Virus record (IMG/VR): IMGVR_UViG_3300036546_000172
Location: 73,943-137,942 of that record
Direction: 5' to 3' (one strand)
Source: a virus
Taxonomy: Duplodnaviria > Caudoviricetes
Length of the DNA: 64,000 bases
Made by a program: the position numbers and the translations under genes. Under the pieces are notes generated by a model. It had not been told where the DNA came from. It saw nothing but the letters and a program-made list of their open reading frames with translations, and made no database searches. Positions 22,708-42,063 of this stretch are shown here, in pieces. Position 1 is the first letter of the stretch. Each line of letters starts with the position of its first letter.

Positions 22708-23961
22708 ATGAATAAACATTACTTCGAAAGATACACAAAGTTTATGCTTCGTTGCAAAGCCAATAACCTAGAGCGGGAAAGTGGAGCAACAGAAACACAT
22801 CACATTATTCCACGCTGTCGTGGAGGTGATAATAGCCCTGATAACTTAGTTGTGCTTACTTTACGTGAGCATTATGTTGCTCATTGGATGTTGTGGAGAG
22901 CATATCCTGAAGACCAAGCACTCGCTTTTGCTCTTTATCAAATGAGCAATAAAAATGCTCAAAAGTATGAAGGAAAAGTAAAAACTATTCCATCAAGAGT
23001 ATACAGTAGCTTAAAATCACAATGTGTACAGGCTATATCTGAAAACAATAGAGTGTGGGTATACGTTAAGGATTCAGACAACAACTTAGTTAAGCTATCA
23101 AAACAAGAGTACCAAGAATCCGAATTAAAATTCCATACTAGTGGGATGGTTTATTGTTATGATGTAATAGAGGAGGAATATACATATATCACCTCTGACC
23201 TGTACCAATCTAGTGATAGATATGTTAGGCGGGTTGATCACGTCACACGATTGTGGATAAACGAAGACACGGGTGAAGTCCGACGAATGAGTTTTATAGA
23301 GCGGCGTGAGTTAAACCGTGAGCTGGGTTATGATGGGTGGAAGTACCTATATGCTCAGAAAACGAGTGTTTATAACGAAAACGGCGACAAAATAAGCATT
23401 CCACTAAACACATACAAAGAAAACCGTGGCAATTATACGCACATAAATCACGGATCATTTGTTGTACTGGACCAGGTAACAAAAACCCATATTAAAGTGA
23501 CACACGACGAGTACGCCAGTGATCCTGACCGATACCTAACATCAACTAAAGGTAAAGTGTTGTCGCGAGATGATGAGGGGAATGTGGTATTGGTATCCAA
23601 AGATGAATTTGACAAAGGAAACTTAGAAGGACTTACTAAGAACATGACATCCGCCAAGAACATAAAAACGGGATTGTACGAAAAAATTACTGTAGAAGAA
23701 TTTGAGAAAAACAAAGACTTGTATTCTGGTCCGTGTTTAGGTAAAGTTAACGCAAGAAATAAATTAACTGGTGAAGTCAAACAAATACCGAGAGAATACT
23801 TCCTTAATCATAGAGACGAATGGGCTGGAGCTTCTCACGGTGTATTTAAGATTAGAAATCGTTTAACAGGTGAGACAATGCGTGTTACTATATGGGACGA
23901 CTTGAGTGAATATGATACCAATGAATGGTATACTACAAGCAAAAAATACAGAATCCAATAA
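22708..23961 (+). mobile_element. free-standing HNH homing endonuclease (MobE-like)
   Basis: ETHHIIPRCRGG...NLVVLTLREHYVAH; repeated C-terminal modules (NxxTGE-like); AT-rich. Confidence 0.88.
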
Positions 23962-23972
23962 TGGAAGATAAT

Positions 23973-24845
23973 ATGCTATACTCAGAAATTTTTAAGAGTC
24001 TTGCTGGTGAAGGGCACTATACAGGATACCCTTCTTTATGGCTTAGGACTTTTTACTGCAATCTTACTTGTGCTGGTTTTGGTCAACCTGATCCTACAAA
24101 CAAAGAAACTTATAACCCAGTAGGTAAAGATGTTAACTTGATCGATATTAAGGATATTACAGATCTCCCAGTATTTAAATATGGTTGTGATAGTGCGTAT
24201 TCAGTAGCTAAGGAATTTAAACATCTTCAGTACGACGAGACTCCTGAGCAGATAGCCGAGCGTTTGGATGCTTTACTTCCGACTCATGGTGTGTGGTCTA
24301 ATGAAGATTATGATTTCCACATGGTATTTACTGGTGGAGAGCCCCTTTTAAAGAAAACACAGAAGGGATTAGTGGAACTTTTTGATTTGTGGAGCAGGCG
24401 TGAGGATGGTAGCCGTCCCAAGTTCATTACGTTTGAAACTAACGGGACTCAAAAAATTACTCCTGAATTAGCACAACGACTAAACAGTTCTTGGATTGAA
24501 GAAGTTTTGTTTTCGTATTCTCCTAAGCTCTTTACTGTATCAGGAGAGTCCAATAAACGAGCGGTTAAGCCTGAAATTATACAACACAACATTGATGCAG
24601 TCGATAGGAGTGCTTATACGTTGAAGTTTGTAGTAAACGGCCAAGATGCAGCATGGAACGAACTTGACGATGTAATCAATCAAATAGGACTAGGTAAAAA
24701 ACATGTGTGGATCATGGCAGTTGGAGGACGAGTTGAAGATCAAGAGCTTTCTGCAGGAGATATAGCTAATAGGGCCATTGACCAAGGGTATAAAGTGAGT
24801 GCGCGGGTTCACTCTTATCTGTGGGGGAATACTCCCGGCACGTAA
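23973..24845 (+). CDS. queE: 7-carboxy-7-deazaguanine synthase (radical SAM)
   Basis: SEIFKSLAGEG, CNLTC...GCDS, TGGEPL, ETNGT and SPKL motifs. Confidence 0.92.
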   Translation: MLYSEIFKSLAGEGHYTGYPSLWLRTFYCNLTCAGFGQPDPTNKETYNPVGKDVNLIDIKDITDLPVFKYGCDSAYSVAKEFKHLQYDETPEQIAERLDALLPTHGVWSNEDYDFHMVFTGGEPLLKKTQKGLVELFDLWSRREDGSRPKFITFETNGTQKITPELAQRLNSSWIEEVLFSYSPKLFTVSGESNKRAVKPEIIQHNIDAVDRSAYTLKFVVNGQDAAWNELDDVINQIGLGKKHVWIMAVGGRVEDQELSAGDIANRAIDQGYKVSARVHSYLWGNTPGT

Positions 24846-24876
24846 ATACTGCATATCCAACCAAACGAGATGTGAC

Positions 24877-25368
24877 ATGAAATTCAAGCAATTCCTAAAC
24901 GAGCAAATCGATCGCACGAAGATAGCTGTATCTAACGCATCGAAGTTCAACACATTAAAACGAGCTATTGATGCTATGTACCGTCAGAAGATGGTCACTG
25001 GTGTCTTGCTGGGTGACGATAATCAATACTGGGTACCAGCTACCAATCGTGAAATGAGCCTGCTGGTTAAAGCCGGGTATGAAGAACTTGATACCAAAGG
25101 CATGAACGAGTCTCAGACGCTGACCAAGACTCACAAGTCCATCATTGATGGCAAGAAAGGATCTGTGGTCATCACCACCTGGGGATCAGTTCCAAGACCA
25201 GACGTAGATGATTTAGTATCTATCAGTCATAATGGGGTTGAGCTGTATCGAACGCGATATGACAGCAAGCGGATAGATAGCGGAGAGAAGGTATACGAGT
25301 TTCGCTCAGACGATGACTCTATGCGTATGTGGGTCAATAAAGACCTTTCAAGAATGTGGCATGATTAA
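24877..25368 (+). CDS. putative internal head protein
   Basis: MKFKQFLNE N-terminus; TAAATA at about 24843. Confidence 0.55.
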   Translation: MKFKQFLNEQIDRTKIAVSNASKFNTLKRAIDAMYRQKMVTGVLLGDDNQYWVPATNREMSLLVKAGYEELDTKGMNESQTLTKTHKSIIDGKKGSVVITTWGSVPRPDVDDLVSISHNGVELYRTRYDSKRIDSGEKVYEFRSDDDSMRMWVNKDLSRMWHD

Positions 25369-25380
25369 GAGGATTATTAA

Positions 25381-25968
25381 ATGACGTGGGAAATCCATAA
25401 GGACTTTTACCTGGAGTACGGACATCGTGTGTGGAGTCAAGAACTTCATTCGGACTTCTGCGCCACGGGTGATGATAAATGCGCCTGTCGACATCTGCAT
25501 GGTCACAGCGGTAAGGTGTCCATTCATCTGGAAGCTGATGAGCTTGAACGCGGAATGGTCACTGATTTCAAGCACATTGGATTCATGAAGAACTTCATCG
25601 ATCGTTACCTGGATCATAAAATGCTGATTGATCTTGATGATCCGGCTTTCGATCTTGTGACGGGCGGTCTTGTAGATAAGCGACGCGCAACCTTCATGAT
25701 GTACGATCGCTCACTGCCTCTGTCTCGAGTCATGATGGACGATTACGTGTGTGGATACGTGATAGCAGATCTAGATAAAACGGATCTCCCATCACACCAG
25801 ATTGAGCTGCTCGAGGGCTTCTTTTTCGTAGAATTCTTGCCTACGTCTGAGAATCTGTGTAAGTACATCGCTGAAGTAGCTGGTGCTAAGCTGAAGCAGC
25901 TGGGTGTCAAGGTGTCTAAGGCTATGTGGCACGAGACTCCGAAATCACACGCCTCGTATATTCTGTAA
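25381..25968 (+). CDS. queD: 6-carboxytetrahydropterin synthase
   Basis: GHR, CRHLHGH, GMVTDF, DH, PTSENL and ET motifs. Confidence 0.92.
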   Translation: MTWEIHKDFYLEYGHRVWSQELHSDFCATGDDKCACRHLHGHSGKVSIHLEADELERGMVTDFKHIGFMKNFIDRYLDHKMLIDLDDPAFDLVTGGLVDKRRATFMMYDRSLPLSRVMMDDYVCGYVIADLDKTDLPSHQIELLEGFFFVEFLPTSENLCKYIAEVAGAKLKQLGVKVSKAMWHETPKSHASYIL

Positions 25969-25975
25969 AAAGTAG

Positions 25976-26004
25976 TTGATCTCCTGGTCATCTTTTCCTA
26001 TAAT
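25976..26004 (+). promoter_or_regulatory. sigma70-type early promoter
   Basis: TTGATC-N17-TATAAT. Confidence 0.7.
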
Positions 26005-26046
26005 GTAATGGTAGGATAGAGATAACACTGACCAGGAGATTATATT

Positions 26047-26427
26047 ATGAACAAGCTGACCACTGAAGCCAAAGTTGAAATCGTTGTTGCTGCTCTGAAG
26101 AAGGGTGATAAGCTGGTAAAATCTCATCTGGCTAAAGAGAAGGGAATTGATCCCAAGACTCTGAATCGCTACATGAAGCAGTATCACAGTGAGGCGAAGA
26201 AGCGTCTGGAAGTGAAACCAGCCTCTATGCCAACCAAACGTGGTGGCAAACCTCGCAACGGCCGAGTCAGTCTGATCCTGGATTCTATTTCCAAGTTCGG
26301 AGTAGATGGGAAGACTGCTGAGATCTACAAAGACGCGCTTCAAAAAGCTGAAGAGCAGAATATGCGTGAGATTTCTAAGTACAGCTGGTACTCTATGATC
26401 GCGCAGATTCGCAACAACCTGAAGTAA
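26047..26427 (+). CDS. basic HTH-like hypothetical protein
   Basis: LAKEKGIDPKTLNRY helix-turn-helix pattern; AGGAG RBS. Confidence 0.6.
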   Translation: MNKLTTEAKVEIVVAALKKGDKLVKSHLAKEKGIDPKTLNRYMKQYHSEAKKRLEVKPASMPTKRGGKPRNGRVSLILDSISKFGVDGKTAEIYKDALQKAEEQNMREISKYSWYSMIAQIRNNLK

Positions 26428-26477
26428 TATTCAGACGAATTAAAAGGCCAGATGAGGAAACTTATCTGGCCTTTTGC

Positions 26478-26485
26478 TATAAATA
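26478..26485 (+). promoter_or_regulatory. T4-type late promoter
   Basis: exact TATAAATA after a terminator-like hairpin (about 26443-26475). Confidence 0.7.
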
Positions 26486-26617
26486 GCGCTACAATCCTAC
26501 AAGCAACAGATTTTCTGAAGGTTGCACCTGACTCCCTTGTTAGGTTTTTCTTCAGCCAAGGTTGACCGCCCTTGTCTCTTCCACGGTCATTAAACATTCA
26601 AATGAAGAGGAAATGCA

Positions 26618-27283
26618 ATGTCTAAAAACAATCCGCTGCTAGGTAGTGAAGTGAATAAACACCTGCGTAAACTGGGTATTCAGACTCCTATGACTGATCG
26701 CGTTATGGAAGATCGTGATGTTAAGGTTGAGAAGATCACTCACCTCATGGCAGAAGTGCTTGAAGTTCTGGGACTGGATCTCACAGATGATTCATTAGAA
26801 GAAACACCTCTACGGGTCGCTAAGATGTATGTAGATGAGGTCTTCAGTGGTCTGACTGATGAGGCTTTCCCCAAATGCACAACGGTAGAAAATAAGTTTT
26901 CGTCCGGTGATGAGTTTGTACAAGAAAAGAATATAACGTTATATTCAGACTGCGAGCATCACCTGCGTCCAATATACGGGGTAGCTCATGTGGCGTATTG
27001 TCCGGCAGATAAGGTACTGGGTCTGAGTAAGATGAATCGGATCGTACAGTATTTCGCCCGACGTCCGCAGGTTCAGGAGCGTCTGACTCATCAGATTGCT
27101 GCTGCTATTTCATACATTACTGGCTCTGAAGATGTGATTGTGGCTGTTGATGCCAGACACATGTGTGTATCTCAGCGTGGTGTATCTGACACTAACAGCT
27201 CTACACAAACTATCGCAGCTCTTGGTCGATTCGGTAAGCAAGATTCCCACCTACGCAGTGAGTTCATAAACTCCATCCAATAA
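26618..27283 (+). CDS. folE: GTP cyclohydrolase I
   Basis: ETPLRVAKM, CEHH, GLSK, QVQERLT and HMCVSQRG motifs. Confidence 0.96.
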   Translation: MSKNNPLLGSEVNKHLRKLGIQTPMTDRVMEDRDVKVEKITHLMAEVLEVLGLDLTDDSLEETPLRVAKMYVDEVFSGLTDEAFPKCTTVENKFSSGDEFVQEKNITLYSDCEHHLRPIYGVAHVAYCPADKVLGLSKMNRIVQYFARRPQVQERLTHQIAAAISYITGSEDVIVAVDARHMCVSQRGVSDTNSSTQTIAALGRFGKQDSHLRSEFINSIQ

Positions 27284-27345
27284 TCCTTTCAATCGAGTTG
27301 TAGCGTGACTATAATGTACGCTACAACTCCGTAAAGAGGTTCTAT

Positions 27346-28131
27346 ATGAAAATAAGTCATGAAGCACCGTTATACATGTTTGATGAGATTGACGCTCATA
27401 CAGATTACAACTACGCGCTGGTTCATCTGTTTGAAGAGAGCGAACAATACTACGACAAATTTAAAGCCTTAGTAGATCGAGGACGTGAAGTCATTCTAGA
27501 CAACAGCATCTTCGAGAAGGGAGAGGCGTTTGAATCTGAACAATTTGCAACATGGGTTAATAAGCTCCAGTCTGAATGGTACATCATACCGGATAAACTC
27601 GAAAATGCCGAGATCACAGTATCTAATGTTCAAGATTGGAATCGTGATTATCGATCTGACCTGCCGGGGAAGACCATTGGTGTGGTTCAGGGTAAGACGT
27701 TTGAAGAGATCGTCTGGTGTTACAAGATGATTGAGCCGTTGGTAGACAAGGTAGCGATTTCATTTGACTACTCAATGTTCAACCAATGGTTTCCAAATGA
27801 ACCAACCAAGTATCACGCGTGGATGAAAGGTCGTGTTCGTCTGATCAACATGCTTGAGAGTCGTCGTATTATCAACACTGATAAACCTCATCATCTGCTT
27901 GGATGCGGTCTGCCTCAGGAATTCATGTACTATCGCAATAAGCCATGGATCGATAGCTTAGATACCAGCAATCCTGTGGTTCACGGTTTGATGAATATTC
28001 GATATGAAGCTCACGGACTGGATAACAAAGAGTCCATCAAGCTGTGTGATCTCATCGATGTGATTCCTACACCGGAGCAGTATCACACGGTCATGTCTAA
28101 TGTGGCATCTTTTCGGAGACTGTGTCAATGA
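27346..28131 (+). CDS. dpdA: TGT-like 7-deazaguanine insertion enzyme (DpdA, DpdA3-like)
   Basis: ILDNS, PD, GVVQG, HHLLGC and SLDTSNP TGT-fold motifs inside a que cluster. Confidence 0.8.
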   Translation: MKISHEAPLYMFDEIDAHTDYNYALVHLFEESEQYYDKFKALVDRGREVILDNSIFEKGEAFESEQFATWVNKLQSEWYIIPDKLENAEITVSNVQDWNRDYRSDLPGKTIGVVQGKTFEEIVWCYKMIEPLVDKVAISFDYSMFNQWFPNEPTKYHAWMKGRVRLINMLESRRIINTDKPHHLLGCGLPQEFMYYRNKPWIDSLDTSNPVVHGLMNIRYEAHGLDNKESIKLCDLIDVIPTPEQYHTVMSNVASFRRLCQ

Positions 28132-28634
28132 GGTGGATCGCTTTATTTTCACAGACGGGATCTGAGCTTGAAATGCTGTGTCAAGCTCTAGGACGTCGAC
28201 CAGATCAGGTATATACTAACATCTCCGATGTCTCCTCAATGAGATACAAGGGCCCGTACAAACAGCTGTCGCACTCTAAGATCGAAAAGAACCTGAGAGA
28301 GACGGTCTCTGAAGGGGACATGGTCACACTGCATGGCTACCTTCGTATTTTGTCACCGGATGTTTGTGATCTGCCATGTACTATTCTAAATGGACACCCG
28401 GCGCCTCTTCATTTGGCACCAGATTTGAAAGGCAAGGATCCGCAAGATCGCATCTTTGAAATGAAGCACCCATTGGGTACGGTTATTCACGAGGTAACCT
28501 CTGTAGTAGACGACGGTGAGGTCTTGTATTATAATGATGCGGTGAATGATTGCGATACGGTAGATGACGTCTACGCATCACAGAAGATTTTGTCATTTCG
28601 TCTGTGGTTGCAATGCTTACAGGAGAGGTTATGA
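28128..28634 (+). CDS. PurN-like formyltransferase (DpdN-like)
   Basis: ALFSQTGS, LHGYLRIL, ILNGHP, LKGKDP and GTVIHEV...VDDG match formyltransferase motifs. Confidence 0.8.
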   Translation: MRWIALFSQTGSELEMLCQALGRRPDQVYTNISDVSSMRYKGPYKQLSHSKIEKNLRETVSEGDMVTLHGYLRILSPDVCDLPCTILNGHPAPLHLAPDLKGKDPQDRIFEMKHPLGTVIHEVTSVVDDGEVLYYNDAVNDCDTVDDVYASQKILSFRLWLQCLQERL

Positions 28635-29152
28635 GAATAGGACTGCTGGGCGCTCAAGGTACGGGCAAGACCACGCTTCTTGAAGCCTTGTGTCAAGAGC
28701 CTGAGTTCAAGGGGTATACCAAGTGTGTTGAGGTGACGCGGTGGATACTTAAGCTCAACATGCCGATCAATGAAGGTGGCTCTGACATGGGTCAGCGCTT
28801 AATCATGATGAAGCTTATTGAGAATGCCGTGCTATATCCAGACATGATTACCGACCGCACTATCGTGGATTGTCTGGTCTATACTCAGTGGTTATATAAT
28901 CAAGGCAATGTGTCACAAGAGACGCTGGATCTGGTTAAACTGGCGTTTGATCGTGTCATTGGAATGTATGACCGTTTGTTCTATATTCCGGTAGAGTTCG
29001 ATATTGAGGATGATGGTGTGCGCTCATCCAGTAAACAATTTCAACAAGAGATTGAACAGCTGTTTGAGCACAACATCAAGGATATTAACGTCATCAGGTT
29101 GAGTGGTTCTGTTGAACAACGAATGAATCAAGTCAAAGAGGGTATTAAATGA
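28631..29152 (+). CDS. P-loop nucleotide monophosphate kinase-like protein
   Basis: GAQGTGKTT, DRT, EDDGVR. Confidence 0.75.
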   Translation: MRIGLLGAQGTGKTTLLEALCQEPEFKGYTKCVEVTRWILKLNMPINEGGSDMGQRLIMMKLIENAVLYPDMITDRTIVDCLVYTQWLYNQGNVSQETLDLVKLAFDRVIGMYDRLFYIPVEFDIEDDGVRSSSKQFQQEIEQLFEHNIKDINVIRLSGSVEQRMNQVKEGIK

Positions 29153-30063
29153 ATATTAATGAAATCGCGGGTAAGCATCTGGGTAAGGCTGGTGATGGCT
29201 CAGTAGTTAAACCCTATGTAACACCAGACAATATCGACGCTTCCTTGCTGGTGGGAGTGCCTCGTCACTTCAATCGAACAGATTATGATATCAAAGAAGA
29301 TGACCTCCCGTTCGTTGGTATGGATGTGTGGAATGGATATGAGTTTTCATGTCTACTGGACAATGGATATCCGGTGTCTGGTCTCATCCGATGGTCCTAT
29401 CCTTCTGACTCAAAGTGCATCGTTGAATCTAAGTCAGTGAAGCTGTATCTGAATAGCTTTAACATGGCTAAGATGGGATCCACTGTGGATGAAGCAATTG
29501 AGGCTGTAGAGAGTCAAGTCAAAGCCGATCTTGAGAAATGCGTTGAAGGTGAGGTAGAGGTCACGCTTCATACCGAAGAAGACGGGTTCCCTTGCACTCC
29601 AATGGATTACGGTTTCGATCGATTGGATGACTTGGTCGATGTAGAGTCCATGACCTTCACCACATACAACGAAACACCAGACACTCTGGATGTCTCTGAA
29701 GGTTCATGCTACATCGAAGTCTACACCAGCAACCTGAGATCCAACTGCCGTATCACCAATCAACCAGACTGGGGTGATATCTACATCTATGTCAAGTCTG
29801 ATACTCATTCTGTGACTTATGAATCTCTGCTTCAATACATCGTGTCTATGCGTAAGGAATCACACTTCCACGAAGAGATTTGTGAATGTGTATATAAGCG
29901 ACTGTATGATCTTCTAAAACCAGAAGAACTGATGGTAGCTTGTCTCTATACTCGTCGTGGTGGTATTGATATCAATCCTATTCGAGCCACACACCAGGAG
30001 CTCATTGACGAACATCCGATGACAGATGTTGAAACACAAGTCAACAAGACTATGAGGCAATAA
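29149..30063 (+). CDS. queF: NADPH-dependent preQ0 reductase (bimodular)
   Basis: IVESKSVKLYLNSF QueF motif, LRSNCRITNQPDWG, FHEE, YTRRGGIDINP. Confidence 0.95.
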   Translation: MNINEIAGKHLGKAGDGSVVKPYVTPDNIDASLLVGVPRHFNRTDYDIKEDDLPFVGMDVWNGYEFSCLLDNGYPVSGLIRWSYPSDSKCIVESKSVKLYLNSFNMAKMGSTVDEAIEAVESQVKADLEKCVEGEVEVTLHTEEDGFPCTPMDYGFDRLDDLVDVESMTFTTYNETPDTLDVSEGSCYIEVYTSNLRSNCRITNQPDWGDIYIYVKSDTHSVTYESLLQYIVSMRKESHFHEEICECVYKRLYDLLKPEELMVACLYTRRGGIDINPIRATHQELIDEHPMTDVETQVNKTMRQ

Positions 30064-30803
30064 TGGACATTAAACAGGCATTAGAACGTCTGCCCGATAC
30101 TGATCATAAAGTGATTGTGACACACAGCGGTGGACTAGACAGCTCCACCGCCGTATGTCTTGCTGTGAAGAAGTACGGTGCAGATAATGTAATCTCTGTA
30201 GGATACAACTACGGACAGAAGCAGCAGATTGAGCTTCAACGAGCGTCAGAGCTGTGTGATCTATTAGGCGTGCGACGTGAGATCATCGATCTGAATGTGC
30301 TGGGTGATATTGTCAGATCAGTGAGCGCTAACATCAGCGGATCTGATATCGAGATGCCCACGATCAAGGACGTGCTTGGTAATCCTCAACCTCCCACGTA
30401 CGTTCCGTGGCGGAATGGTGTCATGTTCATGTTGACAGCTGCTTTCGCTGAAGCTAATCAAGCCTCTCATGTGATCTGTGGTCTTCAGGTTCATGATCAG
30501 TATGGGTATTTTGATACTACCCAGGCATTTGTAGATGGCATCAACCATCTGTGGTCTCAGAATCGTATGTGGCCATTAACACTGGTAGCTCCGTTCTCTG
30601 ATCTATCTAAGACTCAGGAGCTTGAATTGATTGCCGATATGGGTCAGATGGATCTCATGAAGCATACTCTGACATGCTACAATCCAGATGACAGTGGACG
30701 CTCATGTGGTCAATGCCCATCGTGTGCCGAACGCATTAAGGCTTTCATGGACATTAAAACTCCTGATCCTGTTGAATACAGTCTAACTATCCCCTGGAGG
30801 TAA
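30063..30803 (+). CDS. queC: 7-cyano-7-deazaguanine synthase
   Basis: SGGLDS, YGQ, TYVPWRN and TCY...CGQCPSC motifs. Confidence 0.95.
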   Translation: MDIKQALERLPDTDHKVIVTHSGGLDSSTAVCLAVKKYGADNVISVGYNYGQKQQIELQRASELCDLLGVRREIIDLNVLGDIVRSVSANISGSDIEMPTIKDVLGNPQPPTYVPWRNGVMFMLTAAFAEANQASHVICGLQVHDQYGYFDTTQAFVDGINHLWSQNRMWPLTLVAPFSDLSKTQELELIADMGQMDLMKHTLTCYNPDDSGRSCGQCPSCAERIKAFMDIKTPDPVEYSLTIPWR

Positions 30804-30804
30804 T

Positions 30805-31422
30805 ATGTGTGGTTTGTTTGGTTCAAATGATGTGAGTGAGTTCAAGCAGTTGTTTCATCTTAACACCGTGCGGGGATCTCATAGTCATTCAGTGTCTGTG
30901 TTAGATGGCCTGGATGTTGAAGTTCGAGCCAAACAAATTGGCACTAATCTCGCTGAATATGACTCAGATGAAGATGTGTTGTTATGGATGGGTCATATTC
31001 AAGCTCCCACAACATCTGATCGTGATGTAAATTCTATTCACCCGTCAGAAATCAACGGATCGTATCTGTGGCATAACGGCATTATTCATTCACAGACTGT
31101 GACTCGATGGCAAGAGGAATTAGAGACTGAAGTGTCATGGGACACCAGACTCATGCATCAAATGCTGCTCAATAAGAGTTTTGATGTACTGAATGACATT
31201 GAAGGTTCATTTGCATGCATATTCTTTCTACGCGGTGATCTCTACATGTTCCGCAATGATAATTCACCGCTCTATGTCAAAGATTCATCATACTCGTCAG
31301 TGATGTTTGATGGTGCATGCGCGATTGAGCCTAACATTGTATATATACTAGCTGACGGTACCTGGACTAAAACATCGTACAAATTCGTTAACAAAGATCA
31401 GTTCTTCTGGTCACCATTTTAA
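30805..31422 (+). CDS. class II glutamine amidotransferase domain protein
   Basis: N-terminal MCGLFG, RG, HP, WHNG and EGSFA motifs. Confidence 0.85.
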   Translation: MCGLFGSNDVSEFKQLFHLNTVRGSHSHSVSVLDGLDVEVRAKQIGTNLAEYDSDEDVLLWMGHIQAPTTSDRDVNSIHPSEINGSYLWHNGIIHSQTVTRWQEELETEVSWDTRLMHQMLLNKSFDVLNDIEGSFACIFFLRGDLYMFRNDNSPLYVKDSSYSSVMFDGACAIEPNIVYILADGTWTKTSYKFVNKDQFFWSPF

Positions 31423-31432
31423 AGGAATCATT

Positions 31433-31948
31433 ATGTCTGTAGTCGTAGTTAATACACCAGAAAGCAATACTCACATCACCAACATCGACGACGATTGTGT
31501 ACAGCAGGCAGCTGTCGATCTTCGATTAGAAAGAATGTGGGGTATGAACGGACCGTTCACCATTGATGAAGAGCAGAAGCAGCATCGCAACAAGTACGAG
31601 CTGTCTGTTGATGATGAGGGGTATTATAATCTTGAGCCTGGAGTGTATGAGTGCTCATTTGATCATGATATTAAGATGGGCGATGACGAGGTAGCGCTTA
31701 TCGTTACGCGCAGTACTTTGATTCGTAACGGGATATTCATCGCATCTGGGCTTTGGGACCCGTCCTTCAGGGGGAAGGGAGGGTGTTGTTTACATGTTCA
31801 TGGAGGTCCTGCTAAGATCAAGCCCAACACTCGTATCGGTCAATACCTGGTGTGGAAGGTAGCTAATGCCCAGGGTCAATACGATGGTGATTACGGATTA
31901 GATCGGAACGGACAAGCTAAAGAAATGGAAAAACGTTACTATTCATAA
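31433..31948 (+). CDS. dUTPase/dCTP-deaminase family protein
   Basis: AVDLR, RSTLIRNG, WDPSFRG and RIGQ motifs. Confidence 0.8.
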   Translation: MSVVVVNTPESNTHITNIDDDCVQQAAVDLRLERMWGMNGPFTIDEEQKQHRNKYELSVDDEGYYNLEPGVYECSFDHDIKMGDDEVALIVTRSTLIRNGIFIASGLWDPSFRGKGGCCLHVHGGPAKIKPNTRIGQYLVWKVANAQGQYDGDYGLDRNGQAKEMEKRYYS

Positions 31949-31957
31949 GGTTACATC

Positions 31958-34900
31958 ATGTTCTATCTTTTCTATAAGCAGTGGGGGAATAGCATTCTAT
32001 TCTCCTACGTGGATGATCAAGGCGAGACCAAACACACCAAGGTGACGGATTACAAACCGTCACTCTTCACCAAAACAGAAGAAGATGGGGATGCTGTCTC
32101 CATCTTCGGCTATCCGTTGAAGCAGATCGAATTTGAAAACATCAAAGCTGCTAAGAACTTCTATGAGCAGTATAAAGATGTAGATGGAATGACCATTGAA
32201 GGCAACTACAAGTTTGCTAACCAGTTCACTATCGAGTTGTGTGAAGGTAAGACTCCAGATTACGATCCTCAGAAGATACGAGGCTGTATTCTCGATATCG
32301 AGGTCTCTGCTCCGGAGTTCCCCAAGCCTGAGCAGGCTTTGTATCCCATCGATGCTGTTACATTCTATGACACGATAGCCAACAAGTTCACAGCATTTGG
32401 TCTCGGTGAGTATCATCGATCGAAGGATAACACCAAGGTTAATGAGCTTAACCTAGATGTAGACTATACTCAATGCTCATCAGAGAACGAGTTATTATTG
32501 AGCATTGTCAATTTTATATCCAATGGCAGCTTTCACTTCACATCAGGCTGGAACAGTGAATCGTTTGATATGCCGTACATTGTCAATCGAATCACAAACA
32601 TGATGGGAGAGAAAGTAGCTAAGAGACTATCTCCATACGGAATGATCAACTGGACTACAGTTCAATCAGATTACTTCTCGTTCCAGAAAGTGGATATTGT
32701 GGGACTGCCTCATTTGGACTACATGAACCTGTACAAGAAACACACGTTCGTTCCACGCGAGTCCTATTCATTGAATTTTATCGCTGGTGCCGAGCTTGGT
32801 GATGAGAAATTGTCATATGAAGAAGAGGGATCGCTGGCTAACCTATCTAAAGTCAATTTCCAGAAGTACATCTCGTACAACATCATTGACGTAGATATTA
32901 TTCGTCGATTGGATGAAGAACTGGGTCTGTTTGATATTACACAGACTCTGGCTTACCTAACAATATCCAACTATGAAGATACACTAGGTACAGTTCGGCT
33001 GTGGGAACAACTGATCGCCAAGGAGTTGTATGCCAGACAGATTGTACCTCTGTGCTCACCTGTTAGTAATACTTATCGTCCATACCCCGGTGGTTATGTC
33101 TCTGAGCCTCAGGTGGGCAGACACGAGTGGGTATCATCGTTCGATCTTAACAGCCTGTATCCAATGCTTGAGGTACAGATCAATATCAGTCCAGAGACAT
33201 TCATACCGAGACATGACCTTCCGTCTGAATTGGCTGAGTTGCAAGATCAGTTGAGGATACGTGATATTGATTGTTATTATCAGCAGGTTATGAACTTGGT
33301 TGATAAAGAAGTAGACTTATCTGTATTAAAAAAACACAACGTCTCTATGTCTGCTGCTGGTCAATTCTATCGAAGAGATATCAAGGGCATCATCCCTACT
33401 ATCAAGGATGAGATTTACAGCAGTCGAAAGCAATTTAAAAAGAAGATGCTGCAGGCTCAAGCTAAACTTGACCAGCTGAAGGGAATGGAAGACACGGACG
33501 AATACCACTACTGGAAGCGTGAAGAGGCTAAAAATAACAACATACAGATGGCATTTAAGATCCTGATCAACTCAGGATATGGAGCTCTTGCGAACAAGCA
33601 CTTCACCTACTTTCGAATTGAGAATGCCGAATCGATTACATCTACTGGTCAATTGGTTAATAGGTGGACGTCTGAGCGAGTCAATAAACTCTTGAATGAA
33701 CTCGCTACAAATAAAAATTATAAAAACTACGTCATTAATAATGATACAGACTCTGTAGCTGGAGATAGTGTCATCTATGTTAATGGAGACCCTATCACAA
33801 TAGAGGAATACTTTAACACTCAACGTGATTTTATAGTGTATGATACATTTAATGAACATTACGTCGCATCGGTTAGCGGTGACACTTCCTATGGAAGTGA
33901 CGATGCATTCTCACTCGTGAAACGACCTGTCAAGTATGTGATGAAACACAAGACACAGAAACGAATGTACCGTGTTACTGTGAATGGCAAAAGCGTAACT
34001 GTAACAGCAGATCATGGTCTGATGGTTAATCGTGGAGGAGAATTAGTTAAGGTCAGACCAGGTGATGTTCGTGTCTCTGATAAGCTTATATCGTTAACTT
34101 GTGAGTCTGATACGGAAATAGGAAGCATAACACAGCATGACGATTATCAAATTGAAGATTTGGGTATAGTTGAAGACTATGTGTATGATATTGAAGTTGA
34201 AGATGTGCACAACTTCATAGCTAACGATATATTGGTTCACAATAGTGCGTATTTTGAACTCTCAGATATCGCTTCAATCCTGTGCCCCGATGAGGAAGAC
34301 CCATACGCAGTTACAGACAAACTGGATGAGTTCTTGAAGCAAGTCATCTCACCGTCTATTCAGAGTCAAACTGAAGAGCTGTGTGATTATCTCAACAATT
34401 ACGAGAATAAGATGGTATGGGAGCGTGAGGTTATCTCTACATCATCTATCAACGTAGCTAAGAAACGCTATGCCATGCTCGTGACTGACTCTGAAGGTGT
34501 TCGATTCACCACACCTAAGCTTAAGATCATTGGACTGGATTCTAAACGATCGTCGACTCCTGCCTGGGCTAAGAAAGGTCTGGAAATTTGCTATCGATTG
34601 GCACTAGAGGACAAGAAGGATGAGATGCACCAGTTCATTGAGACCTTCGAGAAGGAATTCTACACACTGCCGATATCTGATATTGCTATTCCGCGTTCAG
34701 TATCTTCTATTGAGAAGTACATGGATGGTCATGGTGGTTATATCAAAGGCACACAAAAACACGTCAAAGCAGCTATTCTGCATAACACCATTGTAGAGCA
34801 GAAGGAGCTGAAGCACATTGACAAATTGAAATCAGGCAACAAGTTCAAGTTCATTGAACTCAAGAAGCCGAATCCGTATAATGGTGATGTTATAGGGTTT

Positions 34901-35047
34901 TTGTCTTATCTGCCTAAAGAGTTTGAAATCGAGAAATACGTGGATAAGCAAGTAACCTTTGAATCTGGTTTCCTAAAGCCTTTGTCCAACTTTCTAACTG
35001 CTATCAACTGGTCAACCGAAGAGAAGATTGACCTGTTTGATTTCTGA
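31958..35047 (+). CDS. 43: B-family DNA polymerase (T4 gp43) with intein
   Basis: DIE exonuclease motif, GWN, DLNSLYP, KILINSGYG, DTD/S and KKRYA motifs. Confidence 0.97.
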   Translation: MFYLFYKQWGNSILFSYVDDQGETKHTKVTDYKPSLFTKTEEDGDAVSIFGYPLKQIEFENIKAAKNFYEQYKDVDGMTIEGNYKFANQFTIELCEGKTPDYDPQKIRGCILDIEVSAPEFPKPEQALYPIDAVTFYDTIANKFTAFGLGEYHRSKDNTKVNELNLDVDYTQCSSENELLLSIVNFISNGSFHFTSGWNSESFDMPYIVNRITNMMGEKVAKRLSPYGMINWTTVQSDYFSFQKVDIVGLPHLDYMNLYKKHTFVPRESYSLNFIAGAELGDEKLSYEEEGSLANLSKVNFQKYISYNIIDVDIIRRLDEELGLFDITQTLAYLTISNYEDTLGTVRLWEQLIAKELYARQIVPLCSPVSNTYRPYPGGYVSEPQVGRHEWVSSFDLNSLYPMLEVQINISPETFIPRHDLPSELAELQDQLRIRDIDCYYQQVMNLVDKEVDLSVLKKHNVSMSAAGQFYRRDIKGIIPTIKDEIYSSRKQFKKKMLQAQAKLDQLKGMEDTDEYHYWKREEAKNNNIQMAFKILINSGYGALANKHFTYFRIENAESITSTGQLVNRWTSERVNKLLNELATNKNYKNYVINNDTDSVAGDSVIYVNGDPITIEEYFNTQRDFIVYDTFNEHYVASVSGDTSYGSDDAFSLVKRPVKYVMKHKTQKRMYRVTVNGKSVTVTADHGLMVNRGGELVKVRPGDVRVSDKLISLTCESDTEIGSITQHDDYQIEDLGIVEDYVYDIEVEDVHNFIANDILVHNSAYFELSDIASILCPDEEDPYAVTDKLDEFLKQVISPSIQSQTEELCDYLNNYENKMVWEREVISTSSINVAKKRYAMLVTDSEGVRFTTPKLKIIGLDSKRSSTPAWAKKGLEICYRLALEDKKDEMHQFIETFEKEFYTLPISDIAIPRSVSSIEKYMDGHGGYIKGTQKHVKAAILHNTIVEQKELKHIDKLKSGNKFKFIELKKPNPYNGDVIGFLSYLPKEFEIEKYVDKQVTFESGFLKPLSNFLTAINWSTEEKIDLFDF
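33752..34243 (+). mobile_element. contiguous mini-intein (164 aa) in polymerase motif C
   Basis: DTD|SVAGDS...VTADH...VYDIEV...VHN|S; no endonuclease domain. Confidence 0.92.
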
Positions 35048-35601: not shown

Positions 35602-36534
35602 ATGGGACTGGCTGATCAATTTGTTAAGAGCTCAAAACTCAAAAGAGCTGGAAAACTATCAACTATCGTAGAGGAGCCCGAGACACGTTACGACACCGGT
35701 GTATATGCATTGAATCTAGCCTACTCTGGAGATCTACTAGGAGGCACAAGTACTGGCGTGTCTCTGCTAGCCGGTAAGTCACGAAGCTTTAAAACTCTGT
35801 TTGGTTTGATCAGTTGTAAATCATACCTAGACGCTCATGATGATTCGTACATGATTTTCTATGACTCCGAGGGCGGCGCGTCTGAGGAATACTTTGAGTC
35901 TGTTGGTATTGATACTGGTCGTGTACTGTACTTCTCTATCATGAACGTTGAGGAGCTTAAACTCGACATAGTGACCAAACTTGAAGCTATTAAGAAAGAG
36001 TATGAAGAGACGGGTGAGTATCCTAAGTTCATATTCTTCATTGATTCGATTGGTAATCTAGCTTCACTCAAGGAAGTAGAGGACGCTATCAACCAGAAGA
36101 CTGTAGCGGATATGTCACGTGCCAAGGCACTTAAGAGCTTCTTTCGTATTGTAACTCCGTATATCAAGAACTACGAGCTTCAGCTGATTGCTATTATGCA
36201 CACATACGATGAGATTGGCGGTATGGGAGCTCCGAAGCAGATCATGAGCGGTGGTTGTTTGCTGCCTGGTACTCAGATCTTGACAAGCGAAGGTCTGAAG
36301 AACATAGAATGCATCAATGTAGATGACATGGTCGTGTCAGGAGATGGTGGGCTTACTCGTGTTGTTAATGCTTGGACTCCCGAAACACTTGAAAACGGAG
36401 TGCCCGAGTGTCTAGAAATCACTTTTGAAGACGGTCATGTTGTTCGGTGTAGTGAGAGCCATAAGTTCAGAGTTAACGGAGAATGGATCGAAGCTAAAGA
36501 CCTAACAGCAGGTGTAGTTACCGATGATGTTTAA
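35602..36534 (+). CDS. uvsX: UvsX recombinase N-terminal fragment plus N-intein (IntN 36256-36531)
   Basis: GKSRSFKT, YDSE, DSIGNLAS and DMSRAK, then CLLPGT...CSESHKF intein blocks A/B. Confidence 0.92.
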   Translation: MGLADQFVKSSKLKRAGKLSTIVEEPETRYDTGVYALNLAYSGDLLGGTSTGVSLLAGKSRSFKTLFGLISCKSYLDAHDDSYMIFYDSEGGASEEYFESVGIDTGRVLYFSIMNVEELKLDIVTKLEAIKKEYEETGEYPKFIFFIDSIGNLASLKEVEDAINQKTVADMSRAKALKSFFRIVTPYIKNYELQLIAIMHTYDEIGGMGAPKQIMSGGCLLPGTQILTSEGLKNIECINVDDMVVSGDGGLTRVVNAWTPETLENGVPECLEITFEDGHVVRCSESHKFRVNGEWIEAKDLTAGVVTDDV

Positions 36535-36711: not shown

Positions 36712-37278
36712 ATGGCAATGAAGATTGAGAGTATTAAAAGTATTGGTAAACACGAGGTGTATGATATTGAAACCGAGTCTCACGACTATGTACTATCCAA
36801 TGGAGTCATCACCCATAACTCAGGCGGAATGCTATCAGCGGACCAAGTTTTCATAGTAGGCAAGCGTCAAATCAAAGAAGGTACGGATCTTGTAGGCTGG
36901 CAGTTTATTCTCAATGCTGAGAAGTCTCGGACTATTCGAGAGAAGTCAGCTATTCCGTTTGAAGTTAAGTATGACGGCGGTATGGATCGATACTCCGGTC
37001 TTCTGGACATCGGACTAGCCTCTGGTTTCGTTACTGCACCCAAGAAAGGATGGTTTACACGACCGTCTGTATCAGAAGATAAGAATTGGCGTCGGAAGGA
37101 CACCTCTTGTGAGGAGTTCTGGAAGCCGTTACTTGGTGATCAGAAATTCTTAGACACAGTCAGTTCTATGTATAAAGTAGGTGGCAATGGTAAACTGCTT
37201 CAGGATAAACTTGACGGTCTGCTTAACGAAGGTGAAGATCTAGACCTAAGCACCGGTGAAATCACACAAACAGAATGA
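36712..37278 (+). CDS. uvsX: C-intein (36712-36819) plus UvsX C-terminal fragment
   Basis: MKIESIK...VYDIET...ITHN|SGGMLSADQVFIVGKRQIKEG; own GAGG RBS. Confidence 0.92.
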   Translation: MAMKIESIKSIGKHEVYDIETESHDYVLSNGVITHNSGGMLSADQVFIVGKRQIKEGTDLVGWQFILNAEKSRTIREKSAIPFEVKYDGGMDRYSGLLDIGLASGFVTAPKKGWFTRPSVSEDKNWRRKDTSCEEFWKPLLGDQKFLDTVSSMYKVGGNGKLLQDKLDGLLNEGEDLDLSTGEITQTE

Positions 37279-41184: not shown

Positions 41185-42063
41185 ATGCTGTCGCTTGTAA
41201 TTCGTCAACCCAATCATTCTGCGTATGAGGTATCGTTCACGGTTGATCATTTTCCGTGCGGAGAGACTAATCTCAGAGTAGATGATCCGCGTGTATCTAA
41301 GCTCAAAGAGATCAAACAACACGAAGGTACGTTCATCATTGGCTTCATGTATGAGTCGAACGATGACCTGATCAACCTGGCTCTTCTATGCGACGCGCTA
41401 GACGGGGTCAACTCCTCTCTCCCCAGGGTTCTATCTATCGGGTACGTTCCTTATGGAAGACAGGATCGACGCTGTAATGAAGGAGAGCCTCATTCATTGA
41501 AGGTGATTTCACGTTTTATCAACTCTATGGGATTCTCATCGGTTCTTGTCATGGATCCCCACAGTGATGTCATCGAGGCTCTGATTAATAATGTGCGTAT
41601 TGTTGGTGTTGAGAAGATATGCTCCAACTTCATCATTTACAGTGATTACGATTACCTGGTATCGCCAGACGGTGGTGCGTACAAGAAGGTGAATAAAGTA
41701 GCTCAGATGACGAACGTTCCTGTTATTCGTGGCGATAAGGTACGCGACACTGAGACCGGAAAGATATCTAACATCACGGTTCACTGTGATGAAGGACAAT
41801 TACAAGGCAAGAAAGTCCTGATCGTGGATGATATATGTGATGGTGGCGGTACTTTCAACGGACTGGCACTTGAACTTCTCAACAAAGGAGCTCATACTGT
41901 GGATCTGTACGTGACTCACGGTATGTTCACCAAAGGAGTGGAGCAAGTAACTCATCACCTGGGGTCTCAAATCATTGATCGGGTGGTTGTAGGTTTCTAT
42001 CATGGACCTGGTGAAGATCGAGATCTGGTCTATGTTATACCACATTATGAGGTGTTGAAATGA
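41185..42063 (+). CDS. PRPP-synthetase-like protein (candidate Adps of NARP1)
   Basis: FPCGE, PYGRQDR, DPHS, SPDGG, VDDICDGGGT and THG motifs. Confidence 0.88.
   Translation: MLSLVIRQPNHSAYEVSFTVDHFPCGETNLRVDDPRVSKLKEIKQHEGTFIIGFMYESNDDLINLALLCDALDGVNSSLPRVLSIGYVPYGRQDRRCNEGEPHSLKVISRFINSMGFSSVLVMDPHSDVIEALINNVRIVGVEKICSNFIIYSDYDYLVSPDGGAYKKVNKVAQMTNVPVIRGDKVRDTETGKISNITVHCDEGQLQGKKVLIVDDICDGGGTFNGLALELLNKGAHTVDLYVTHGMFTKGVEQVTHHLGSQIIDRVVVGFYHGPGEDRDLVYVIPHYEVLK

Follow-up and report, generated by a model that had tools for sequence, protein, structure and literature searches.

Complete replacement of G by 7-deazaguanine derivatives has been published for phages encoding a DpdA3, compared with 30% or less replacement for the DNA-acting DpdA1/2/4 enzymes (PMC10516641). 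The Flavobacterium phage immuto contains 345,000 fdPreQ1 per 10^6 nt and shows no dG peak, and complete replacement has also been published for CP220 and phiST (PMC10516641). In the literature, DpdA3 is taken to act after replication, on the argument that a DpdA is encoded by all deazaguanine phages (Hutinet/Cui et al. 2023, PMC10516641). However, DpdA3 activity has never been reconstituted, including an unsuccessful attempt on DNA in E. coli, and the function of the formyltransferase DpdN is predicted only (PMC10516641). In bacterial DpdA, Ins1 and Ins8 form a surface for dsDNA, and a zinc site pins Ins8 (PMC10164549).

Here, we describe a gene cluster of the DpdA3/DpdN type in an uncultured T4-like phage with a complete genome of 138 kb, which carries the backbone markers PolB gp43, UvsX, gp41 and gp32. 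The window, i.e. the whole stretch of DNA analysed, comprises 64,000 nucleotides. Family-profile searches of the ORFs recovered all of the genes that a previous sequence-only reading had named, in the order given there and all on the plus strand, from QueE at 23925 to the end of PolB at 35047 (Table 1). The cluster start proposed in that reading, 23973, is an alternative start of queE and represents an internal ATG, since the queE ORF already opens at 23925. Clusters of this type are common (at least 547 IMG/VR loci), and for comparison we used 83 sampled DpdA3 loci and a panel of 82 related loci. Two small ORFs without a family match, which the sequence-only reading had not mentioned, interrupt the gene order. 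The one between queE and queD has no homologue among the 82 related loci and is lineage-specific and probably outside the 7-deazaguanine pathway, while a homologue of the one between queD and folE is present in one panel locus (L004). As a whole, the locus is best explained as a DpdA3/DpdN-type 7-deazaguanine system whose modified base would enter DNA via the nucleotide pool, a reading to which we assign a probability of about 0.5.

Table 1 Predicted genes of the 7-deazaguanine cluster and of the adjacent DNA polymerase. Coordinates refer to the window.
Feature	Coordinates	Strand	Supporting matches
QueE-like radical-SAM 7-carboxy-7-deazaguanine synthase	23925..24845 (alternative start 23973)	+	phrog_2076 7e-46, full length
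ORF, 189 aa	24799..25368	+	no Pfam, PHROG or NCBIfam match
QueD, 6-carboxytetrahydropterin synthase	25381..25968	+	PF01242 (PTPS) 4.4e-24; phrog_2389 3e-30; TIGR03367
ORF, 126 aa, weak HTH-like signal	26047..26427	+	sub-threshold HTH_Tnp_1 only
FolE, GTP cyclohydrolase I, type IA	26618..27283	+	PF01227 2e-59
DpdA3-type guanine/7-deazaguanine transglycosylase	27346..28131	+	phrog_19058 1e-52
DpdN, PurN-like formyltransferase (predicted: preQ1 amine to formylamine)	28122..28634	+	PF00551 32 bits (cutoff 26.1); TIGR00639 PurN
P-loop (deoxy)nucleoside/nucleotide kinase, predicted	28604..29152	+	AAA_28 2.4e-14; phrog_2107 'thymidylate kinase' 2e-27
Bimodular QueF, preQ0 to preQ1 nitrile reductase	29149..30063	+	QueF_N 5e-30; QueF 4e-21; TIGR03138 8e-68
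QueC, preQ0 synthase	30063..30803	+	PF06508 2.6e-47
Stand-alone Ntn (class II) glutamine amidotransferase	30805..31422	+	phrog_12378 2e-33; weak PurF/GlmS N-terminal matches
DCD/dUTPase-fold predicted dNTP pyrophosphatase	31433..31948	+	PF22769 2.5e-14; NF002598 101 bits (below cutoff 130)
PolB, gp43-type family B DNA polymerase with mini-intein, directly downstream of cluster	31958..35047	+	DNA_pol_B 1.8e-19; exonuclease domain 6e-16; Intein_splicing 4e-12 (residues 638-762)

The predicted synthesis of the base up to preQ1 by five enzymes of the cluster is well supported by their intact catalytic motifs. QueD contains an extra internal segment of about 70 aa and an intact CxxxHGH motif, FolE keeps its zinc ligands (CEHH and Cys183), QueF retains the motif ESKSVKLY and the catalytic Cys (in CRITNQPDW), and the PP-loop SGGLDS and four zinc Cys of QueC are invariant in 23 homologues. 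The QueE ORF, which yielded no match in the Pfam search, shows weak TIGR QueE matches in addition to its PHROG assignment, and homologues are found in 62 of the 83 DpdA3 loci. FolE, QueD and QueE would convert GTP to CDG, from which QueC would make preQ0, presumably with ammonia from the neighbouring Ntn glutaminase, before QueF would reduce preQ0 to preQ1. The glutaminase begins with MCG, its Cys2 is invariant in 23 homologues, and it co-occurs with a subtype of QueC (at least 48% identity) in 27/27 cases. Homologues also lie beside QueC in KVP40-like Vibrio phages, including phi-Grn1 and phi-ST2, for which the published DNA composition is dPreQ1/mdPreQ1 with zero dG+. Since glutaminase and QueC are separate genes, QueF is present and the Vibrio phages with the glutaminase have dPreQ1 and no dG+, the enzyme probably supplies NH3 for nitrile formation by QueC and not for amidine formation.

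The gene that had previously been called dpdA-like can be placed in the DpdA3 family by its 52% identity to DpdA of immuto, its 38-40% identity to CP220-type proteins of Campylobacter phages and its hhalign match to CGPG_00065 of phiST (97.8%); the ORF has no match in the Pfam search. With 261 aa, the protein represents a minimal TGT-fold TIM barrel, and its AF2 model (pLDDT 94.9) superimposes on Z. mobilis TGT 40-359 over about 230 residues (VIA Z 17.8, rmsd 3.1 A). D52, D83 and D206 are invariant and correspond to the catalytic motifs of TGT, whereas inspection of motifs across the homologues revealed no CxCxxC...H zinc motif and only one invariant Cys. The assumed link between the PurN paralogue and DpdN is borne out by 36% identity to DpdN of immuto (7e-26) and by the common gene order DpdA3-DpdN-kinase-QueF; the protein keeps N-x-H-P and the Asp, and its gene directly follows DpdA3 in 76 of the 83 loci. 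Together with the full preQ1 set, this immuto-type order supports, as far as sequence tools reach, the earlier proposal of formyl-preQ1 DNA. We consider it likely that all guanine in virion DNA is replaced by 7-(formylamino)methyl-7-deazaguanine (fdPreQ1).

The kinase has an intact Walker A and DR motif, and the nearest folds of its AF2 model (pLDDT 90.5) are the NadR ribosylnicotinamide kinase (Z 18.0), deoxynucleoside kinases (Z 15-16) and thymidylate kinases (Z 14.5). An AAA_28 kinase adjoins DpdA3 in immuto, CP220 and 62 of the 83 sampled loci; about 20 of the 83 lack an adjacent one, some of which are truncated contigs. One subclade harbors a small DUF3310 gene in the kinase position. In every lineage examined, DpdA3 is paired with a kinase of the nucleotide/nucleoside type, which belongs to three different P-loop families: AAA_28 here, in immuto and in CP220, the latter also encoding a fusion of HD and AAA_33, AAA_18 in phiST, and a T4 gp1-type DNMK beside the DpdA3-like gene of Vibrio phage D479; the neighbour gene in Aeromonas phage Ahp1 encodes a homologue of this DNMK. 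The kinase, hydrolase and DpdA3 genes of CP220 stand together as an isolated trio surrounded by tail genes.

An NTP hydrolase is likewise encoded in or beside most DpdA3 clusters, with a fold that varies between DCD (here; 30 loci), MazG-like PRA-PH (immuto; 34 loci), MazG (phiST) and HD (CP220). Among the loci with full flanks, 24 have a MazG-like gene, 14 a DCD gene, 3 neither and 0 both, a complementarity that is partly phylogenetic because it coincides with two phage lineages (PolA-type vs T4-like). For the DCD-fold protein, the best-scoring models are those of archaeal-type dUTPases and the closest structure in the PDB is 9w59 ('probable dUTPase'); it has a His in place of the Glu of dCTP deaminases. 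Its gene, the sole dUTPase-family gene in the genome, may encode an ordinary dUTPase, but its product is also a candidate enzyme for the conversion of dGTP to dGMP. When loci were collected by the DCD family alone, independently of DpdA3, a DpdA3-family ORF was located upstream in 22/22 loci with at least 5.5 kb of upstream sequence and in 66/79 overall, mostly as the directly preceding gene. In addition, unannotated distant DpdA3 genes lie beside a DCD-family gene in three cultured phages (Vibrio D479, Aeromonas Ahp1_CNU-2021 and Rhizobium RHph_I1_18).

Because the kinase and the dUTPase-like enzyme are constant partners of DpdA3, a swap on free nucleotides before replication is suggested, unlike in the published model, in which finished DNA is modified. 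We give even odds to this pre-replicative route, for which the kinase at DpdA3 in every lineage with its switching family argues, as does a DpdA3 of only 261 aa with three catalytic-type Asp and without the zinc motif. Further points in its favor are the complete replacement published for DpdA3 phages, the NTP hydrolase of changing fold at most clusters, the 22/22 linkage of the DCD family to DpdA3 and the ADG nucleoside reported from the cytoplasm of CP220-infected cells (cited in PMC10516641). In addition, no further gene for a dNMP kinase, a MazG or HD protein or an RNR large subunit was found in the complete genome. As with T4 gp56/gp42/gp1, dGTP would be converted to dGMP by the DCD-fold enzyme, DpdA3 would exchange guanine for preQ1 on a free deoxynucleotide (or deoxynucleoside) by a TGT-type double displacement, and DpdN would formylate the aminomethyl group as PurN does the phosphoribosyl amine GAR. 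The kinase would then begin re-phosphorylation, host kinases would complete it, and the polymerase gp43 encoded next to the cluster would incorporate the modified dNTP. Since the nearest folds of the kinase include nucleoside kinases no less than dNMP kinases, the substrate of DpdA3 may be a nucleoside or a nucleotide.

To our knowledge, polynucleotides are the substrates of all TGT/DpdA enzymes characterised so far. The published model, in which a highly processive DNA transglycosylase DpdA3 swaps each G for preQ1 or formyl-preQ1 after replication and the kinase and DCD genes are ordinary nucleotide-supply genes of an early/replication region, agrees with the TGT fold and the conserved Asp triad shared with DNA- and tRNA-acting relatives, with the presence of a DpdA in every deazaguanine phage, and with the archaeal-type dUTPase affinity of the DCD-fold protein in a genome encoding ThyA. 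Nevertheless, we regard it as less likely here, since it leaves unexplained the recurrence of kinases from three unrelated families and of NTPases with three folds directly beside DpdA3 in unrelated backbones, and the presence of a DpdA3-family gene with the DCD subfamily in all of the 22 anchored loci. Moreover, ThyA and the DCD gene lie tens of kb apart, the CP220 trio stands alone among tail genes, the zinc motif by which bacterial DpdA pins Ins8 as part of its DNA-binding surface is missing in DpdA3, and DpdA3 activity on DNA was not achieved in E. coli (PMC10516641). Within a pre-replicative route, DpdA3 could also exchange the base on deoxyguanosine, with the AAA_28 protein as a deoxynucleoside kinase forming the 5'-monophosphate and host or other kinases finishing. 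The kinase model is indeed closer to the NadR domain and deoxynucleoside kinases than to thymidylate kinases, and CP220 has two kinases and an HD domain, a fold that includes dGTP triphosphohydrolases yielding dG. DCD and MazG enzymes, however, yield dNMP and not nucleosides. In addition, the Z differences amount to a few units only, the kinase by the DpdA3-like gene in D479/Ahp1 is of the T4 gp1 dNMP type, and screening of the window genes against family libraries brought up no 5'-nucleotidase. We consider this variant improbable, even though the ADG nucleoside is, according to a report cited in PMC10516641, present in the cytoplasm of CP220-infected cells.

Still less probable appears a final base other than formyl-preQ1, i.e. 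dPreQ1 with DpdN acting in folate/purine metabolism, or archaeosine (dG+) if glutaminase and QueC acted like Gat-QueC. Such an outcome would be compatible with the status of DpdN function as a prediction in the literature and with the production of G+ by Gat-QueC fusions in phage 9g and archaea. However, DpdN is wedged between DpdA3 and the kinase and conserved in most of the sampled loci, immuto is arranged alike and has fdPreQ1 only, and the intact QueF would consume preQ0. Furthermore, the Vibrio phages with the same glutaminase beside QueC have no dG+, and glutaminase and QueC are unfused proteins, phage 9g being absent among the tblastn-matched organisms.

Among known systems, immuto shares with the locus DpdA3, DpdN, the AAA_28 kinase (36% identity) and QueF (48%) in the same order, followed by a DNA polymerase. 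It differs in being a PolA phage and not T4-like, in its MazG-like (PRA-PH) NTPase located upstream instead of a DCD-fold gene downstream, and in a small PRTase that is not present here, whereas our cluster includes QueC paired with a stand-alone glutaminase and the two lineage-specific small ORFs. CP220 (dADG) and phiST (dDG) likewise encode a P-loop kinase and an NTP phosphohydrolase on the flanks of a DpdA3-family enzyme, but with other enzymes (HD + AAA_33 and AAA_28 in CP220, MazG + AAA_18 in phiST), and they halt at CDG-derived bases without QueF or DpdN. Gat-QueC of phage 9g and Crenarchaeota also couples a class II glutaminase to QueC, a coupling we infer here from co-occurrence; in our locus the genes are separate, in the order QueC to glutaminase, and QueF acts downstream in the pathway. 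Regarding the proposed logic, the T4 hmC pathway (gp56 dCTPase, gp42 dCMP hydroxymethylase, gp1 dNMP kinase) is alike in combining a dNTP hydrolase, a modification at the monophosphate level and a dedicated kinase, as is the Z-genome pathway DatZ/MazZ/PurZ, with genes beside replication genes. Here, in contrast, the activities are predicted, and the proposed modifier is a TGT-fold base-exchange enzyme instead of a homologue of thymidylate synthase or PurA.

The 7-deazaguanine cluster of the window belongs to the published and frequent DpdA3/DpdN kind and does not represent a new system; its main value lies in the mechanism of the 100% guanine replacement rather than in the cluster itself. The IMG/VR record comprises 137,942 bp with direct terminal repeats and is estimated to be complete, with the window as its final 64 kb, and it shows a T4-like backbone (a family B polymerase with intein, UvsX, a gp41-type DnaB helicase and gp32). 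The cluster is an unbroken series of genes coding for QueE, a 189-aa ORF, QueD, a 126-aa ORF, FolE, the 261-aa DpdA3, the PurN-like DpdN, an AAA_28 kinase, a bimodular QueF, QueC, a 205-aa Ntn glutaminase and a 171-aa DCD/dUTPase-fold protein, and it ends 10 bases ahead of the start of gp43. The genes listed in the sequence-only reading were recovered in exactly the order given there, and the five enzymes of the preQ1 set claimed there (FolE-QueD-QueE-QueC-QueF) were all found by homology. FolE, QueD, QueC and QueF retain their catalytic motifs, and QueE was assigned from PHROG and weak TIGR matches only. The 189-aa ORF had no family matches, the 126-aa ORF no solid ones and the 261-aa protein no Pfam match. 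A megablast search with the entire 11-kb region against the phage collection gave no match, and the window appears to be without a close sequenced relative.

Coordinates of the features in the window and, with the prefix L, in loci of other phages from the comparison panel.
Feature	Coordinates	Strand	Remarks
HNH endonuclease gene	22708-23961		417 aa; overlaps queE start
7-deazaguanine cluster	23925-31948	+	QueE to DCD-fold gene
DpdA3	27346-28131	+	TGT-fold transglycosylase
DpdN	28122-28634	+	PurN-like formyltransferase
Kinase	28604-29152	+	AAA_28 P-loop protein
QueC	30063-30803	+	separate ORF
Glutaminase	30805-31422	+	separate ORF
DCD-fold gene	31433-31948	+	dUTPase-like
gp43	31958-35047		1029 aa; mini-intein (Intein_splicing), residues about 638-762
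UvsX, first half	35602-36534		ends in Hint/intein N-terminal part
UvsX, other half	36712-37278		intein C-terminal part, then UvsX C-terminal domain
NAD-salvage trio	41185-44185		three genes, next lines
PRPP synthetase	41185-42063		PF00156 match
Macro-domain protein	42060-42578
Nicotinamide/nicotinate phosphoribosyltransferase	42575-44185
Sigma-70-type factor	54553-55332		regions 2 and 4
Small type I PRTase	L007:7890-8369
Small type I PRTase	L023:7864-8283
Small type I PRTase	L002:9840-10235		immuto gp211
Small DUF3310 protein	L017:11298-11561		between DpdN and QueF
PF01223 endonuclease	L023:7183-7860		non-specific DNA/RNA
DpdA3-like gene region, D479	L088:2609-4498
DpdA3-like gene region, Ahp1_CNU-2021	L092:3530-5513
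DpdA3-like gene region, RHph_I1_18	L087:605-4489
DUF3310 fusion, RHph_I1_18	L087:2705-3973		DUF3310 at C-terminus of DpdA3-like protein

The HNH gene and the two hitless ORFs within the cluster suggest mobile-element traffic in the region. Downstream of the intein-bearing gp43, UvsX is apparently divided into two halves with a 55-aa ORF between them, which may reflect a split or interrupted intein. The T4-like genome also encodes a full sigma-70-type factor, and similar genes occur in Vibrio phage Bakedbeans.

The DpdA-like protein, whose subfamily the sequence-only reading had left to be classified, could be assigned to the DpdA3 subfamily (Hutinet, Cui et al. 2023, PMC10516641) based on its relatedness to the founding members KNV73_gp206 of Flavobacterium phage immuto, gp056 of Campylobacter phage CP220 and CGPG_00065 of Cellulophaga phage phiST, together with the TGT fold of its model. 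It is 52% identical to KNV73_gp206 (2e-79) and 38-40% identical to hypothetical proteins of Campylobacter Firehammerviruses, and its profile aligns with CGPG_00065 (hhalign 97.8%, 1e-12). The AlphaFold (AF2) model (pLDDT 94.9) matches tRNA-guanine transglycosylases with Z 17.8 and an rmsd of 3.1 Å over about 230 aligned residues (VIA); a profile search against PDB sequences returned a chance match only, and the relationship thus came from the fold search. The single sequence retrieved nothing from viral contigs, for which an alignment query was required. Three Asp residues are invariant in 25 sequences, namely D52 (ILDNSIFE), D83 (IIPD) and D206 (IDSLDTSNP), and correspond to D102, D156 and D280 of TGT as matched by motif, not by superposed coordinates. 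The sole invariant Cys is C125, and a CxCxxC motif, which was sought in DpdA3, is absent. In bacterial DpdA, a structural CxCx2Cx22H zinc site is accompanied by the insertions Ins1 and Ins8, which make up a dsDNA-binding surface (PMC10164549); in contrast to this DNA-acting enzyme, the window DpdA3 is without the zinc motif that pins Ins8, a part of the DNA surface.

DpdN matches PF00551 at 32 bits (cutoff 26.1) and harbors the motifs NGHP and VVDDG, keeping the N-x-H-P and the Asp. It is 36% identical to its immuto counterpart, as is the kinase (36%), and QueF reaches 48%; the immuto order DpdA3-(small ORF)-DpdN-kinase-QueF-...-polymerase is common to the window. The DNA of immuto contains 345,000 7-(formylamino)methyl-7-deazaguanine deoxynucleosides (fdPreQ1) per 10^6 nucleotides and gives no dG peak, and complete G replacement in virion DNA has been published for immuto, CP220 and phiST only (PMC10516641). 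Since gene order and protein identity are shared with a phage whose DNA is fdPreQ1, the final base in the DNA of the phage studied here is probably fdPreQ1 as well, which, within sequence analysis, lends support to the earlier proposal of formyl-preQ1 DNA in a T4-like phage. Formylation of preQ1 by DpdN is a prediction even for the founding member (PMC10516641).

DpdA3 was represented by 4,035 cluster representatives in the protein collection (E ≤ 1e-3) and by at least 547 loci in IMG/VR. When all ORFs located up to 8 kb from DpdA3 were clustered for 83 loci, DpdN was found in 76, adjoining DpdA3 in 76/83, followed by QueF (72), FolE (69), the AAA_28 kinase and QueE (62 each), QueD (57), QueC (50), a small type I phosphoribosyltransferase (PRTase; 40), a MazG-like PRA-PH protein (34), the DCD-fold protein (30), and the glutaminase and PolA (28 each). 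The small PRTase, which is missing from the window, could return the guanine that DpdA3 sets free to GMP/GTP for FolE or form a deazaguanine ribonucleotide. The PF00156 match in the genome turned out to be the PRPP synthetase of an NAD-salvage trio and not the small purine PRTase of the related clusters. One subclade encodes a small DUF3310 protein in the place of the kinase, and the clusters of immuto-like phages include a PF01223 endonuclease (the locus listed in the table and 21 other PolA-lineage loci), which fits with host-DNA breakdown supplying the dNMP pool.

The stand-alone class II GATase of the sequence-only reading was borne out as an ORF of its own, which begins with MCG and thus presents an N-terminal Cys (Cys2, invariant). 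Across a panel of 82 loci, the glutaminase and a QueC sharing at least 48% identity with that of the window always occur together, neither without the other (27/27), and no locus whose QueC belongs to the 27-33% subtype encodes the glutaminase. KVP40-like Vibrio phages and Pseudomonas phage pf16 have homologues adjacent to QueC. Whereas the Gat-QueC fusion of the archaeosine type combines the domains in one polypeptide, the two proteins are separate here and are likewise annotated so in the Vibrio and Pseudomonas phages. The prediction of a QueC-glutaminase complex gave no answer (score 0.00), which counts neither for nor against binding. The pair probably forms the nitrile and not the archaeosine amidine, and the most parsimonious role for the glutaminase would be to provide QueC with ammonia.

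The kinase carries the Walker A motif GAQGTGKT and an invariant DR motif (D84-R85). Its model (pLDDT 90.5) most resembles the ribosylnicotinamide kinase domain of NadR (VIA Z 18.0), ahead of deoxynucleoside kinases (Z 15-16) and thymidylate kinases (Z 14.5), and the protein is, as judged from this model, a (deoxy)nucleoside or nucleotide kinase. No gp1-type kinase, MazG, HD protein or RNR large subunit was found in the complete genome. A kinase directly adjoins DpdA3 across very different phages. The CP220 trio, which sits alone among tail genes and distant from the que genes, consists of gp055 (an HD domain fused to an AAA_33 kinase), gp056 (DpdA3) and gp057 (an AAA_28 kinase). Beside DpdA3 of phiST, CGPG_00066 meets the AAA_18 kinase model at its cutoff, with MazG (00068) two genes off, and in Vibrio phage D479 a T4 gp1-type dNMP kinase (PF21448) directly follows a distant DpdA3-like gene, a homologue of which kinase occupies the equivalent position in Aeromonas phage Ahp1_CNU-2021. 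Three non-orthologous kinase families therefore share one position.

The DCD-fold protein matches PF22769, PF00692 and, below the cutoff of 130, NF002598 at 101 bits. It has a His in place of the catalytic Glu of dCTP deaminases and is therefore not a deaminase, and it most resembles archaeal-type monofunctional dUTPases. It is encoded by the only dUTPase-family gene of the genome; ThyA is also encoded, tens of kb away. Its sequence alone suggests an ordinary dUTPase. A fresh IMG/VR scan anchored on the DCD family alone yielded 587 loci, of which the best 80 were used. Among these, a DpdA3-family ORF was present in every one of the 22 loci whose upstream sequence reached 5.5 kb or more and in 66 of 79 overall, usually as the preceding gene, and the loci without it mostly had less than about 1 kb and never more than about 3.4 kb upstream. 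The subfamily is thus essentially restricted to DpdA3 neighbourhoods, and from the 22/22 linkage we conclude that it is a partner of the DpdA3 family and not a free-standing housekeeping gene. In Bakedbeans a DCD-like gene is present, with a large ORF directly upstream that has no DpdA3 similarity. Most DCD-anchored loci belong to a second cluster type, QueE-QueD-(PRTase)-FolE-DpdL-like-DpdA3-like-(DNMK)-DCD, without QueC, QueF and DpdN, whose small gene is homologous to phiST DpdL, which makes it a phiST-like 7-deazaguanine pathway. Phages of the PolA lineage, immuto among them, encode a MazG-like protein immediately upstream of DpdA3: the 41 loci with full flanks encode MazG-like (24), DCD (14) or neither (3), and none encodes both. 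This split tracks two phage lineages and is hence suggestive, not independent evidence. DpdA3-family genes have two near-obligate companions, a kinase of the nucleotide type and an NTP hydrolase.

Three cultured phages, D479, Ahp1_CNU-2021 and Rhizobium phage RHph_I1_18, also encode distant DpdA3-like proteins (hhalign 93-97.5%) whose genes are not annotated as DpdA; a dNMP kinase and/or a DCD-like gene follows immediately downstream, and FolE is nearby. D479 and Ahp1_CNU-2021 share the order DpdA3-like, dNMP kinase, DCD-like. In RHph_I1_18, the gene directly upstream of the DCD-like gene is annotated as DUF3310, a domain that is fused to the C-terminus, and its first ~255 residues are DpdA3-like (97.4%); EVB91_069 is a DpdL homologue (30% identical to phiST DpdL), and the macro-like EVB91_070, considered as DpdA3, showed no likeness. 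All three phages are predicted to contain G-substituted (dDG-like) DNA.

By homology, FolE, QueD and QueE convert GTP to CDG, QueC converts CDG to preQ0 and QueF reduces preQ0 to preQ1. From there, we propose a pre-replicative route with a probability of roughly one half: the DCD-fold enzyme would hydrolyze dGTP to dGMP, clearing the competitor and providing the substrate, DpdA3 would replace the guanine of the free deoxynucleotide by preQ1 through TGT-type double displacement, DpdN would formylate the amine, the kinase would perform the first re-phosphorylation step and gp43 would insert the modified nucleotide product. PurN, the paralogue of DpdN, acts on a phosphoribosyl amine. To our knowledge, the DCD fold is known only for pyrimidine nucleotides, and the DCD-fold enzyme may be a dUTPase, which would speak against the route, as does the fact that roughly one in four sampled loci has no kinase adjoining DpdA3. 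All family members that we know to be characterised act on polynucleotides, which likewise weighs against it. The published model, in which DpdA3 exchanges guanine post-replicatively, we consider less likely than the pre-replicative route. Several observations count for the latter: substitution reaches 100% in DpdA3 phages versus 30% or less with the DNA-acting DpdA1/2/4, DpdA3 did not act on DNA in E. coli and was never reconstituted, and infected Campylobacter reportedly contained the ADG nucleoside (all PMC10516641). The missing zinc motif, the pin of Ins8, would point in the same direction. Most of the remaining probability falls to a nucleoside-level variant of the pre-replicative route. 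A literature search covering sources other than subscription journals found no published nucleotide-level DpdA3 route.

What makes the system interesting is its conserved set of accessory enzymes and the cultured phages carrying DpdA3-like genes. D479, Ahp1_CNU-2021 and RHph_I1_18 make the pre- versus post-replicative question testable in laboratory systems, and fully G-substituted DNA is predicted for phages in which no modification is known. If the pre-replicative route holds true, modified dNTPs and a polymerase accepting them would be of biotechnological use. DpdA3 might then, instead of a DNA transglycosylase, be the first enzyme of the TGT fold to replace guanine with a 7-deazaguanine in free deoxynucleotides or deoxynucleosides, and the DCD subfamily a purine (dGTP) pyrophosphatase, a combined proposal that we put forward tentatively and hold to be somewhat less probable than the route as such. 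DpdA3, its dedicated kinase and a hydrolase acting on dGTP (DCD, MazG or HD) would together constitute a pre-replicative route like those of T4 hmC and the Z-genome, sharing its logic with gp56, gp42 and gp1 of T4.
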